This document shows positions 2,619 to 4,878 of a stretch of 4,878 nucleotides of DNA, one piece after another; position 1 is the stretch's first letter, and every line of letters starts with the position of its first letter. This stretch comes from a virus (taxonomy: Duplodnaviria > Heunggongvirae > Uroviricota > Caudoviricetes): IMG/VR virus record IMGVR_UViG_2648501318_000008; one strand, given 5' to 3'. The translations under genes were made by a program, and so were the position numbers. Under the pieces are notes generated by a model. The model was not told the origin of the DNA and ran no database searches. It was given only the letters and a program-made list of their open reading frames with translations.

Positions 2619-2963
2619 ATGACCACTTTTACCAGAGAGCAGTTAATAACTCACGCAGAGGAGACTATTGAAGCACAGAGACTGTGCATACCAGGCACAA
2701 TCGACCATGACATCATCCGCACATATAAAATGGATATTGCTGTTTTGGAAATCGCATTGGCATCGCTGGCAGCAGAGCCAGCCGGTAAATTGCATGAATA
2801 CAAACCAGTGGGATATCAGCGTCTGGTCGACGAGTTAACCATGCTGGTAAAGCAGTTAACCTGGCAACTGAGGAAAGTGAAGCCGGACTGTAAATTGCCG
2901 GATAAGGCGATGGACTACCTGAAGCGGAACGAACTGATAAGCGCGGAGGATGTTTTGCGATGA
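2619..2963 (+). CDS. Hypothetical protein, 114 aa
   Basis: ATG 2619 with AAGGAG at 2607-2612 (6-nt spacing); clean ORF to TGA 2961-2963. Confidence 0.55.
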
Positions 2964-3043
2964 CCTGGCCTGAAGCATTCACAACGGTAGGAATTGCAAT
3001 GGCGGTGGCGCTGGTGGTGTATTCGATTTGCCGCTGGGGTTGA
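2960..3043 (+). CDS. Possible small hydrophobic peptide, 27 aa ([27 protein letters not shown])
   Basis: ATG 2960 overlaps the upstream stop (ATGA), suggesting translational coupling. Almost entirely one transmembrane-like helix. Below the ORF-track size cutoff; no homology check possible. Confidence 0.25.
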
Positions 3044-3073
3044 CGAAAACGGAGGCACAAAGTTATATTTTCT

Positions 3074-3109
3074 CTGTGTGGTCGGTAACTCGCCCACACA
3101 GTTTGTGTT
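3074..3109 (+). terminator. Candidate intrinsic terminator closing the phage small-gene operon
   Basis: Perfect 8-bp inverted repeat CTGTGTGG (3074-3081) / CCACACAG (3094-3101) with a 12-nt loop, followed by TTTGTGTT. The loop is long for a terminator, so an operator is an alternative. Confidence 0.35.
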
Positions 3110-3125
3110 CGTAAAAATACCATGT

Positions 3126-3134
3126 TGTTAGAAT
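3126..3134 (+). promoter_or_regulatory. Candidate extended -10 promoter (TGtTAGAAT) for the AT-rich cassette
   Basis: TG at 3126-3127 and TAGAAT at 3129-3134, about 25-30 nt upstream of the cassette's first start codon. No good -35 hexamer, which is consistent with an extended -10 promoter. Confidence 0.3.
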
Positions 3135-3159
3135 GTCGTATGCGGATTCATAAGGATAA

Positions 3160-3453
3160 ATGATGAAATTCACAGGGCTACAGTCGTCAGCGTTACCTGA
3201 TACTTCTGATTCAGTAAAAGAGTGTGTGAATCTCGGGCAGTGGATGCTGTTCAAATCTTATGCGCATGAAGTAACCACAACATTTGAAGTGGTGTTTTTT
3301 CTGAAAACTGGCGATGAAATATTTGGTTTGAATGAAAGAGGGCAAATAACGTCCACCCAAATTACTGAACATTTAAGCATCGATGAGCTTTTTTACTTTA
3401 TTGATATACCAAAGCCACCATCTTTCAGTAATGCAATGCCTCCTAAATATTAA
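3160..3453 (+). CDS. Small acidic protein, 96-97 aa, first gene of the AT-rich cassette; unknown function
   Basis: Tandem ATGs at 3160 and 3163; AAGGA at 3152-3156 fits the second better. Net acidic by my count (about 12 D/E versus 7 K/R). AT-rich. Its translation-initiation region GATTCATAAGGATA matches that of the downstream gene at 13 of 14 positions. Confidence 0.55.
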   Translation: MMKFTGLQSSALPDTSDSVKECVNLGQWMLFKSYAHEVTTTFEVVFFLKTGDEIFGLNERGQITSTQITEHLSIDELFYFIDIPKPPSFSNAMPPKY

Positions 3454-3493
3454 CAAAATTTTAACTTAAAACATTCGAATCATAAGGATATGT

Positions 3494-4390
3494 ATGAGCC
3501 TTAGGTCTGAGCGTACGAAATGGGTTATGTTTTTGCCTTGTTCTAAAGAAGAAGTTGAATCGCGCCACGTTTTGGATATTGTTTTTGGCGTGCTATGTCT
3601 TGAGAAGGCCGGTATAAATCCACGAGACATATCAATATATATTGACAGCCCTAACAGGAATTTTGATGATTTTTTTTCATCAGCCTCGAAGTATCCTTAT
3701 GCGTCAAAAGCATCAGCAGATTTCTTTAATGACTTGCGTGATAATAACTACAATAACATAGTAATGTTTGTTACTGGTCATGGTTGCCCACAAGGACTGG
3801 ATGCAAAAAATCCTATTACTCCTCATCAACTTCTCAAGGCTTTAAAAGGAGCACCTAATTTAAACAATGCTATTGTTTATTTTGGACAGTGTTATGCAGG
3901 TACGTTCAATTTTGTTGGGGCGGGTAAAAGAAAGGATGGCGAGCCTGAGGTTGTTTTAATTGGGGCGACTAATCTTACTGAGAGTCTGAGTATAGCGACT
4001 ACTGAAACGTTTCTTGATGGAGATGAATTTCCTTGGACGGCCAATATTTTTCTCCTTCATGTTTTTAAATGGATGTCAAAACCTTCTGATATAGATGGTG
4101 ATGGCCGTTATACTGTAATGGATTCTTATAAGCATGCTGGTATTTTTACTAACTTTGTGAATAAAAAAACAAAAACAGATATGTTTGGTGAGATAATTAA
4201 TATGCATGCAGAGTGTAATAAACTCATGGCACTGGCTTCTTCGGGGACAGGGAATTGGATAATTGATACGACAAATGAGTTAAATTATAAAGCCAAAAAA
4301 ACACAACTACAAAATTTATTGATTGCGCACCACACTCATCAAGAATGTTGGATATTAAATGCAAGACCAGCGCAAAAAATTGAGTTTTGA
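3494..4390 (+). CDS. Putative clan CD / family C13 (legumain-like, caspase-fold) cysteine peptidase, 298 aa, no signal peptide
   Basis: ATG 3494 with AAGGA at 3484-3488. Hydrophobic strand then His-Gly (NIVMFVTGHG, His96) and hydrophobic strand then Cys (AIVYFGQCYAG, Cys133), 37 residues apart. N-terminal KWVMFLPCS...RH...AGINPRDISIYID and later VVLIGATNLTESLSIA parallel, from memory, legumain KHWVVIVAGS...RH...NGIPDEQIVVMMYDD, FIYFTDHG, VFYIEACESG and NVYATTAANPRESSYA. Needs profile or structure confirmation. Confidence 0.6.
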   Translation: MSLRSERTKWVMFLPCSKEEVESRHVLDIVFGVLCLEKAGINPRDISIYIDSPNRNFDDFFSSASKYPYASKASADFFNDLRDNNYNNIVMFVTGHGCPQGLDAKNPITPHQLLKALKGAPNLNNAIVYFGQCYAGTFNFVGAGKRKDGEPEVVLIGATNLTESLSIATTETFLDGDEFPWTANIFLLHVFKWMSKPSDIDGDGRYTVMDSYKHAGIFTNFVNKKTKTDMFGEIINMHAECNKLMALASSGTGNWIIDTTNELNYKAKKTQLQNLLIAHHTHQECWILNARPAQKIEF

Positions 4391-4696
4391 CTAATCGTTA
4401 TGTCAATTAATTACAATAACGACTTATCATGGTGAGCAAAAACGGTTTGCGGGAAAAGGAGAGTTAAGTAGAATTGCTGCGGGTGCTTGAGGCTATCTGC
4501 CTCGGGCATGAACACCAAAAGGCAGATAGAGAAAAGCCCCAGTTAACATTACGCGTCCTGCAAGACGCTTAACATTAATCTGAGGCCCAATCTATGTCTC
4601 ACAAATGTAGGTTAGCCTCTTACGTGCCGAAAGGCAAGGAGAAGCAGGCTATTGTTAACACCAAGCTGTAATGTCCCCTTTGAACCATTCTAAAAT

Positions 4697-4726
4697 GTCC
4701 CCAGACAATTCTCTGGGGGATTTTTC
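4697..4726 (+). terminator. Canonical intrinsic terminator immediately upstream of, and overlapping the ribosome-binding site of, the transposase-like gene
   Basis: Stem CCCCAGA 4699-4705 / TCTGGGG 4712-4718 (plus flanking T-A and G-U pairs), 6-nt loop CAATTC, then GGGGGATTTTTC with five Ts at 4721-4725. The GGGGGA inside the stem is the likely Shine-Dalgarno for ATG 4727. Confidence 0.5.
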
Positions 4727-4878
4727 ATGATCAAAGAGACTGTTACGATGAGTCATAAGGAACTCCACCGACTTCAGATTATTCAGGAGTCAATTAATCG
4801 ACATATTACTCAGGAACAAGCTGCGGCACGCATTGGCATTTCTATTCGGCAGGTTAAACGTCTGGTGCAACGGTATAG
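4727..4878 (+). CDS. Transposase-like HTH protein, N-terminal fragment (IS element, possibly ISNCY or IS481-type); continues past the window end
   Basis: ATG 4727 (alternative in-frame ATG 4748). Translation MIKETVTMSHKELHRLQIIQESINRHITQEQAAARIGISIRQVKRLVQRY is a classic N-terminal helix-turn-helix of IS transposases (compare IS21 IstA ...IATQIGCSERTVRRYLK). Family is from memory and uncertain; IS boundaries are not determinable here. Confidence 0.45.
   Translation, partial: MIKETVTMSHKELHRLQIIQESINRHITQEQAAARIGISIRQVKRLVQRY

Follow-up and report, generated by a model that had tools for sequence, protein, structure and literature searches.

A mobile two-gene cassette of E. coli prophages pairs a legumain-like cysteine peptidase with a small acidic protein carrying a conserved tail asparagine

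What does a two-gene insert of about 1.4 kb do for the lambdoid E. coli prophage that carries it? The window, i.e. the whole stretch of 4,878 nt of viral DNA analysed here, was originally predicted to contain an AT-rich module encoding a cytoplasmic legumain-like peptidase and a small acidic protein. A joint role in defence or as a toxin would be plausible. The answer depends on whether the two genes form one mobile unit, on what the peptidase and its partner resemble, and on how their products could act on each other.

The insert is AT-rich and its open reading frames lie where predicted (Table 1): its GC content is 36.7%, against 47.8% in the left flank and 45.2% in the other. Alignments revealed an empty-site allele in E. 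coli S163-2, where both flanks are joined, and an alternative cargo in strain UTAK-3, where an ORF6N gene occupies the same slot. We placed the approximate bounds of the cassette as in Table 1 because of these two alleles, which directly confirm that the pair was imported as one unit. In lambdoid prophages the slot belongs to the early-right region, with nin-like ORFs on one side and the Q antiterminator on the other. Matches to our query, mostly to short flanks, occur in 2424 of 5426 complete E. coli genomes, and 13 of the 5426 have the full cassette. In this species the cassette is thus rare, and it is often decayed: there are two IS1 insertions, a frameshift of the protease in one lineage and a frameshift of the partner in one genome. 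Such decay fits weak selection as well as a cost.

Table 1. Coordinates of the cassette and its features in the window.
Feature	Positions	Strand	Remark
Whole cassette	3040-4436	+	1.4-kb insert in a lambdoid prophage; its neighbours are a small membrane ORF and the hok/sok locus
Terminator-like hairpin and U-rich run	3074-3109 (stem 3074-3101)	+	inside the cassette, 5' of the genes
Extended -10-like element TGTTAGAAT	3126-3134	+	read from the sequence
Initiation region of the small gene, GATTCATAAGGATA	3145-3158	+	Shine-Dalgarno AAGGA; one of two 14-mer copies
Gene for the 97-aa acidic partner	3160-3453	+	small beta-rich domain and disordered C-terminal tail
Asn91 codon	3430-3432	+	candidate P1 residue; tail motif P-x-S-[LF]-S-N, then 6 variable residues
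Initiation region of the protease gene, GAATCATAAGGATA	3477-3490	+	second 14-mer copy
Gene for the 298-aa legumain-like (clan CD) cysteine peptidase	3494-4390	+	cytoplasmic build
Arg24-His25 codons	3563-3568	+	HMM alignment to asparaginyl endopeptidase 6azt, on legumain Arg44-His45 (S1 pocket)
Catalytic His96-Gly97 codons	3779-3784	+	conservation; placed after model strand 88-93
Catalytic Cys133 codon	3890-3892	+	conservation; placed after model strand 125-130
DxDxDG-type loop D199-I-D-G-D-G-R-Y-T-V-M-D210	4088-4123	+	candidate Ca2+ site

The cassette has candidate expression signals of its own. The hairpin stem is followed by UUUGUGUU, and the 66-nt stretch that contains it (3060-3125) has a folding energy of -16 kcal/mol, lower than that of shuffled sequences (z = -2.67). 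The predicted terminator-like hairpin is therefore present as a stem that folds better than shuffles, but a simple consensus terminator scan did not call it. Downstream of it, the predicted extended -10 element was found as a putative promoter. It is identical in a cassette variant with 93% identity over 395 aligned nt, and it is unlisted by our promoter scan because that scan requires a -35 element. The two genes were also said to share a sequence in their initiation regions. Indeed, the 14-mer GA[T/A]TCATAAGGATA has exactly two occurrences in the window, one before each gene, where 0.01 would be expected by chance. The 14-mer is nevertheless not conserved beyond this cassette lineage, and we rejected it as a conserved regulatory site. 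The two copies are best seen as two strong putative ribosome-binding sites, because only the AAGGA-type Shine-Dalgarno survives in orthologous cassettes. An inverted repeat 3' of the protease gene was likewise rejected as a downstream terminator, since it folds like shuffled sequences (z of -0.2).

We then concentrated on the 298-aa protein. The predicted clan CD signature is found as VMFVTGHG at residues 90-97 and VYFGQCYAG at residues 128-136, with His96 and Cys133 spaced by 37 residues. In the structure model a strand precedes each dyad residue, and among 138 representatives of the family at 50% identity His96 is conserved in 97%, Gly97 in 100% and Cys133 in 100%. When the model was compared with the PDB using Foldseek, the best 36 matches were all legumain-type enzymes, although with a sequence identity of only 13-17%; the first was entry 4n6o, a complex of legumain with cystatin E/M, matched through its legumain chain. 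A profile of the protease family searched against the PDB also retrieved almost exclusively legumain-type structures and aligned both the Arg-His and the His-Gly/Cys blocks. The Pfam Peptidase C13 model (PF01650) gave a less clear assignment. The window protein scored 12.8 bits (E = 0.088), below the gathering cut-off of 22.8 bits, while 18 of 36 homologues matched at E up to 1, the best at 2.8e-6. The family thus sits at the edge of the Pfam C13 model: the nearest structures are of the predicted type, but the window protein falls short of the Pfam threshold. Together, these results support a clan CD fold that is closest to legumain/C13 and has a conserved His-Gly...Cys dyad.

Legumain has Asn as its P1 residue, a specificity set by Arg44, His45, Ser216 and Asp231 (PMC4357240). 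The residues of the cassette protease aligned with the first two are Arg24, which is Arg in 89% of the 138 representatives, and His25, which is His in 75% and Phe in 17%; the nearby Asp28 is conserved in 99%. Ser164/Ser166 and Asn184, conserved at 91-98%, are candidate counterparts of the S1-pocket residues on loop L5, i.e. of legumain Ser216 and Asp231. The protein has no signal peptide, as predicted, and its N-terminus forms the first beta-strand of the fold model (residues 8-14), which suggests a cytoplasmic build. Its C-terminus is modelled as a long hairpin of two helices (208-249 and 255-280) and bears a conserved HQE-W-L motif. Just before it lies the DxDxDG-type loop, in which D199, D201, D203 and D210 are each conserved in 98-99% of the representatives. 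The loop has an acidic residue at position 12 and runs into helix 208-249 of the model, and from established knowledge of the motif we take it to be a putative metal site. Asn289, in the C-terminal motif, was considered as a self-processing site and dropped because this position is Asn in only 70% of the representatives and His in 26%.

The linkage of the two genes, claimed from this single locus, extends to other genomes. Its sequence identified the partner 5' of the protease in 21 loci, and most of the others were recognised from position and pattern; 25 of the 25 viral contigs that include upstream sequence have it. The small gene is immediately 5' of the protease gene in nearly all intact loci. 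The two genes are 40 nt apart in the window and between -4 and 47 nt apart on the viral contigs, and at some loci in genomes they overlap by as much as 13 nt. The pairwise distances of proteases and partners are strongly correlated (r = 0.91, a value reached in 0 of 2000 permutations). Clustering 303 neighbouring ORFs revealed no third conserved gene beyond close relatives. Family representatives are mostly about 270-350 aa long, and none of the 150 listed, the longest of 354 aa, is fused to the partner or to an extra domain.

The partner is acidic as predicted (pI 4.77), and its C-terminal tail is disordered in the structure model. The most informative feature of this tail is an asparagine. 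We compared 34 diverse partners that are only 15-50% identical, and found the Asn in the aligned column in 26 of them and within one column of it in 29; this column is among the nine best-conserved of the partner. As some 46% of proteins would have an Asn anywhere in a 12-residue tail by chance, the weight lies on the aligned column. The residue lies 2-13 positions before the C-terminus and is followed by variable residues, while the motif Ser-[Leu/Phe]-Ser-Asn before it occurs in 24 of 25 viral-contig partners. The original prediction took this acidic protein for an inhibitor, an immunity protein or a sensor. We recast it: the sequences point to a dedicated substrate or pseudo-substrate, a better reading than a generic acidic inhibitor, because the disordered tail has a conserved Asn, the residue that an enzyme of the legumain type is expected to take at P1. 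Its conservation suggests that Asn91 could contact the active site.

The pair has a broad distribution, from Proteobacteria to Spirochaetes and Cyanobacteria, and the protease family comprises around 270 clusters at 50% identity in many phyla; sources naming its members mostly label them 'hypothetical protein'. It is encoded in prophages (including 27 IMG/VR contigs that are apparently prophage-derived), integrative islands, some defence islands and non-phage chromosomal islets. Searches with tblastn found the family in none of 50,697 isolated phage genomes and none of 72,556 plasmids. Its neighbours vary. For example, the pair adjoins SIR2_2 and PLDc_2 genes in P. fragi, SymE in Leclercia and hok/sok in the E. 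coli window, and it lies in an island with a resolvase, an integrase and Imm72 in Burkholderia. Gabija GajA, Drt8, a TOTE primase-polymerase or a type I restriction enzyme are immediate neighbours at some loci, resolvases and integrases also occur near the pair, and many other loci have ordinary housekeeping neighbours. The link with defence islands is only partial. Taken as a whole, the cassette is best described as a self-contained module of two genes that moves horizontally.

How might such a module work? We tentatively favour, as an explanation that still falls somewhat short of probable, a mobile Asn-specific C13-like protease that is gated by its partner's tail, or cleaves it, and works in conflicts between phages and hosts or in those of mobile elements. 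The 298-aa product would be an active cytoplasmic clan CD cysteine endopeptidase, predicted from its sequence to cut after Asn, and would represent a sister family of legumain/C13 that had not been filed before, probably controlled through the invariant calcium-type DxDxDG loop. The partner's P-x-S-[LF]-S-Asn91 tail and its short variable end would enter the active site and place Asn91 in the S1 pocket, where the site may either be cut or be held as a pseudo-substrate gate. Use in phage-host or mobile-element conflict seems the most likely. In a lysogen, the pair would be made from its own promoter and be harmless, until a trigger (for instance an infection, an influx of ions or the loss of its partner) frees the protease, which may then cut other proteins after Asn and halt infection or growth. 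A conserved cytoplasmic legumain relative of bacteria and prophages with an Asn-tailed partner would extend C13 chemistry to prokaryotic conflict systems and give the caspase-fold enzymes of bacterial immunity a further protease family, in a two-protein module of around 1.4 kb with a substrate site predicted to the residue.

The same features could have other explanations. The enzyme might join rather than hydrolyse, as an asparaginyl transpeptidase comparable to the peptide asparaginyl ligases of plants or to PIG-K of the GPI transamidase. The protease would then remove the tail after Asn91, form a thioester with the partner and pass the partner on, either to an amine of a target protein or to the N-terminus of the partner itself or of the enzyme. 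The partner does have what a transpeptidase tag would need, i.e. a conserved Asn near the C-terminus followed by 2-13 variable residues in a disordered segment. However, the loops that determine ligase activity in OaAEP1, butelase and VyPAL2 cannot be mapped onto the cassette protease at this divergence, and PIG-K/GPI8 acts in a membrane complex that is absent from the cassette. We regard ligation as rather unlikely. A full bacterial conjugation system, in which a cytoplasmic legumain-type transpeptidase uncaps the partner at its C-terminal Asn and uses this Asn to ligate it to host or phage proteins, seems to us a little more doubtful still; if true, it would follow the logic of ubiquitin-like tagging with C13 chemistry rather than E1/E2 enzymes. 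Ligation instead of hydrolysis would also make the pair a new system for tagging proteins, with an enzyme that could serve as a tool at neutral cytoplasmic pH. Precursor processing raises a related option, since plant asparaginyl endopeptidases mature cyclotides: the protease might trim or cyclise its partner to yield a product that is secreted or used in signalling. A conserved cleavage-type residue before a short leaving tail would suit such a precursor. This explanation is very improbable for a folded domain of about 90 residues with neither a signal peptide nor a hypervariable core, and with no transporter or other gene conserved nearby.

The architecture of the locus also recalls a classical type II toxin-antitoxin system, in which a constitutively toxic protease would be plugged by the tail of a labile acidic antitoxin. 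The similarities include a small gene 5' of a larger one with short gaps or overlaps, the size ratio of the products, an acidic partner whose C-terminal tail is disordered, and mobility, with type I toxin systems next to the module at some loci. Both IS1 insertions are in the protease and spare the partner. A simple antitoxin role is nonetheless disfavoured because one E. coli genome, L059, encodes a partner frameshifted to 56 aa beside an intact 298-aa protease that keeps its catalytic residues, even if a sequencing error is possible there. The partner has no recognisable DNA-binding domain, the residues after its Asn are not conserved, unlike in a cleavage-resistant inhibitor, and the family is lacking in the 72,556 plasmids searched, where addiction modules would be expected to be common. 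Overall, we judge this explanation unlikely. It is less likely again that the module brings the prophage a benefit other than defence, by processing host or phage proteins at induction or by disabling a host defence protein. Its position between nin-like ORFs and the Q antiterminator and its presence in viral contigs are consistent with such a benefit, but the pair is also found in non-phage islets and integrative islands, is missing from the 50,697 isolated phage genomes searched, and is preceded by a hairpin and a promoter-like element of its own, which would be expected if it is expressed in lysogens.

We finally compared the cassette protease and its partner with known systems. Neither protein matched PADLOC-DB 2.0 at E up to 10, which agrees with the earlier statement that no named defence system is known to be built on a C13 peptidase; NCBIfam had nothing for the cassette proteins, and our literature searches found no paper on the protease family or on its accession numbers. 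Enzymes of the legumain type (C13) are known from the lysosomes and vacuoles of eukaryotes and from their machinery for GPI anchoring. The cassette protease is 13-17% identical to legumain/asparaginyl endopeptidase (MEROPS C13, PF01650) and below the Pfam cut-off; it is bacterial and cytoplasmic, and a small partner gene always accompanies it. Legumain has a signal peptide and an LSAM pro-domain, whereas the structure model of the cassette protease has neither and ends in the two-helix hairpin with HQE-W-L. It also has the invariant DxDxDG loop, and Glu or Asp at the position of legumain Asn42. Cystatin E/M and caspase inhibitors such as p35 insert a P1 residue substrate-like into the S1 pocket of their targets, and the partner tail could act likewise. 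The partner shares no fold with cystatin, and its Asn is in a disordered C-terminal tail instead of a rigid loop. Among the caspase-fold proteases of bacterial immunity, the gasdermin-activating proteases, TPR-CHAT/Craspase and SAVED-CHAT differ from the cassette enzyme, which is C13-like, not C14 or CHAT, and has no fused signalling or sensor domain among the 150 representatives listed. In place of a gasdermin, Csx30 or a nucleotide sensor, its partner is a soluble domain of 97 aa. Metacaspases are also clan CD enzymes activated by Ca2+, but they cleave after Arg or Lys and use other residues to bind Ca2+, while the motif of the cassette protease is a DxDxDG loop placed just before the C-terminal helical hairpin.

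The 298-aa protease is, in our reading, an active cytoplasmic cysteine peptidase of clan CD, from a sister family of C13. Both predicted ORFs exist, and the motifs VMFVTGHG and VYFGQCYAG lie at residues 90-97 and 128-136 of the protease. The family lies at the margin of Peptidase_C13. As a single sequence, the window protein remains under the Pfam cut-off (E 0.088, 12.8 bits against 22.8 bits), and would thus be placed outside C13 by Pfam's own threshold. Yet 18 of 36 diverse family members match Peptidase_C13 (E up to 1, best E 2.8e-6), and the PDB matches of the family profile are almost all legumain-type enzymes (best E 7e-4), aligned across the N-terminal block and the His-Gly/Cys blocks. 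The family comprises 220 clusters at 90% identity (E up to 0.001) and 270 at 50% identity (search of 1.84 billion representatives); among the 150 matches listed, none exceeds 354 aa and most have about 270-350 aa. The predicted catalytic dyad, His96/Cys133, is conserved in 97% and 100% of 138 representatives at 50% identity, as are Gly97 (100%), Asp28 (99%), Arg24 (89%) and His25 (75%, with Phe there in 17%). The HMM alignment places Arg24-His25-x-x-Asp28 on Arg-His-Gln-Ala-Asp of legumain, whose Asn-specific S1 pocket consists of four residues, Arg44 and His45 among them (PMC4357240). Unlike legumain, the protease ends in a two-helix hairpin followed by a conserved HQE-W-L strand. Also unlike legumain is a D199-x-D-x-D-G-x5-D210 loop, where each Asp is 98-99% conserved in the 138 representatives and which fits the DxDxDG calcium-binding pattern. 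There is no signal peptide, as the original prediction states; the fold opens with a strand at residues 8-14. We consider it highly probable that the protein is an active C13-like peptidase. Some Klebsiella-type family members (proteins P0019, P0022 and P0017; columns 278-340 of the family alignment A1) carry at the tip of the C-terminal hairpin a long acidic, repeat-like insertion, rich in E, A and S, of up to ~50 residues.

Judged by their sequences, protease and partner are a co-inherited module. The partner matches PHROG 30138 (function unknown), and nothing in Pfam, PADLOC or NCBIfam. We analysed 42 loci from species-representative genomes of Gamma-/Betaproteobacteria, Alphaproteobacteria, Spirochaetes, Bdellovibrionota, Myxococcota, Cyanobacteria, Melainabacteria, Bacteroidota and Clostridia. 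BLAST places the partner immediately 5' of the protease in 21 of them, and in most of the others this position is taken by an ORF of 80-115 aa on the same strand that shows the partner's pattern. A profile retrieved it in all 25 IMG/VR loci with upstream sequence, from a 4 nt overlap to 47 nt ahead of the protease start. The pairwise distances of the two proteins are strongly correlated (r = 0.91, exceeded in 0 of 2000 permutations), and no further gene is common to the loci. The expected linkage is thus found in other genomes, and the two genes almost certainly form an obligate unit.

The partners share 15-50% identity and have three invariant columns. An Asn near the C-terminus occupies the same column in 26 of 34 partners (within one column in 29), which is among the nine most conserved. 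Its context varies between lineages (a slash marks the predicted cut after the Asn): P-x-S-[LF]-S-N/ and 3-10 variable residues in Proteobacteria, PES-I-D-N/FQPAWA in Treponema, V-P-N/ in Cyanobacteria, K-[LV]-N/Y-[GA] in Bdellovibrio and a deltaproteobacterium, and P-E-N/ and 12 residues in rumen Alphaproteobacteria. In the AlphaFold model of the partner (a helix and six strands, pLDDT 74), residues 89-97 are disordered, including Asn91. A floppy-tail Asn with a short variable end, beside an enzyme that keeps the S1 Arg-His of legumain, is what one would expect of a dedicated P1-Asn site. From these sequence patterns, the tail Asn rather likely engages the S1 pocket; it may serve as a genuine site of cleavage or ligation, or else plug the pocket as a pseudo-substrate.

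The window comes from a Rac/Qin-like lambdoid prophage of E. coli, of which it is the early-right region. Strain 14EC029 holds an identical stretch between DUF977/DUF4014-type small genes (both domains confirmed by Pfam in the window) and hokD, followed by RusA, the Q antiterminator, lysis genes and HK97-type head genes. The best proof that the pair is one imported unit, as predicted, is an indel: the flanks are joined directly in E. coli S163-2, and an ORF6N gene fills the slot in UTAK-3 and others. The insert has a GC content of 36.7%, against 47.8% in the left flank. Of 5426 complete E. coli genomes, 13 have the full cassette and 2424 match the query, chiefly through its short flanks. The predicted hairpin and -10-like element are present, the latter as sequence only. 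The 14-mer GA[T/A]TCATAAGGATA, proposed as a common initiation region, does occur twice, once 5' of each start codon (0.01 expected), but orthologous cassettes keep only its AAGGA Shine-Dalgarno.

Features of the window and their positions
Feature	Position	Remarks
Paralogous small ORFs	1536-1718, 1715-1906	Adjacent; both begin MKNRKAK; common W-x-R-(L/V)-SNRR core
27-codon ORF	2961-3043	Single hydrophobic helix; ends exactly at left cassette junction
Insert (+)	~3040-4436	
Hairpin stem, then U-rich run	3074-3101	Fold of 3060-3125: -16 kcal/mol, z -2.67
TGTTAGAAT	3126-3134	
Partner ORF	3160-3453	97 aa
Protease ORF	3494-4390	298 aa
hok/sok (Rfam)	4481-4653	sok match 114 bits
hok/sok region	4481-4878	Intact to ~4652, the hokD start codon
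ISEsa1 (IS1202-like)	from ~4652	Transposase ORF from 4727

Among related prophages, the slot immediately 5' of hok/sok is empty or holds an ORF6N-domain gene or the protease cassette (loci L049:1461-1733 and L050:1814-2365); both cargo types have the left junction TTGACG(A/T)AA. The 27-codon ORF takes its stop codon from the cassette; in the empty-site allele its frame continues into the hok/sok leader. Identity to the intact 14EC029 locus stops where ISEsa1 begins, at the hokD start codon, so the Hok toxin gene is disrupted in the window genome. The paralogous small ORFs have no Pfam family and look like a tandem duplication in a nin-like region.

No member of the family occurs in 50,697 isolated phage genomes or in 72,556 plasmids, whereas 27 IMG/VR contigs, apparently prophage-derived, carry one. 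The family adjoins SIR2_2 and PLDc_2 genes in a Pseudomonas fragi chromosomal islet and SymE in one of Leclercia, and lies with a resolvase, an integrase and Imm72 in a Burkholderia island. The two nearest genes to either side of about 36 loci include GajA of Gabija, Drt8, a TOTE primase-polymerase and a type I restriction enzyme (one each), three resolvases and two integrases, but also housekeeping types (aldolase, pyruvate dehydrogenase, ribonucleotide reductase). This suggests an accessory, conflict-type module, the neighbour counts being no statistical proof.

Our best account, tentative as a complete chain, is a module in which the partner tail would fill the protease active site and Asn91 would take the P1 position. 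The DxDxDG loop would probably gate the enzyme, and a trigger would free or redirect it to cut cellular or phage proteins after Asn. A role in defence or abortive infection is likewise plausible without being the safer bet. Asn-directed ligation, i.e. protein tagging, seems unlikely, and a classical toxin-antitoxin pair slightly more so. The cassette frequently decays in E. coli, and one genome (L059:3001-4230) bears on the latter explanation: a one-base deletion leaves a 56-aa partner next to an intact 298-aa protease, whose 21 substitutions spare the catalytic residues. Unless the deletion is a sequencing artefact, the cells can live with the protease in the absence of a full-length partner, which argues against an enzyme whose action is lethal without its antitoxin. 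In two other strains, STEC409 and 0-4, the protease gene is interrupted by independent IS1 insertions and the partner gene remains intact; either a cost of the protease or the preference of IS1 for AT-rich DNA may explain this. These elements are IS1A and IS1B, in opposite orientations and at different positions. A further lineage (loci L060-L062, protein P0125) is a recombined, decaying copy: a DUF7167-type N-terminus of 59 residues replaces the first 30 of the partner, and the protease gene is frameshifted at residue 253. A protease that benefits the phage is improbable, and precursor maturation very much so.

The claim that the pair belongs to no named defence system stands: no family in PADLOC, NCBIfam or curated Pfam covers it, and full-text literature searches, also for RefSeq accession numbers, yielded nothing on it. 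There is a smaller chance that the pair represents a new conjugation chemistry. We know of no C13-like protease with an Asn-tailed partner in bacterial immunity, a repertoire that includes caspase-fold proteases with operon partners.
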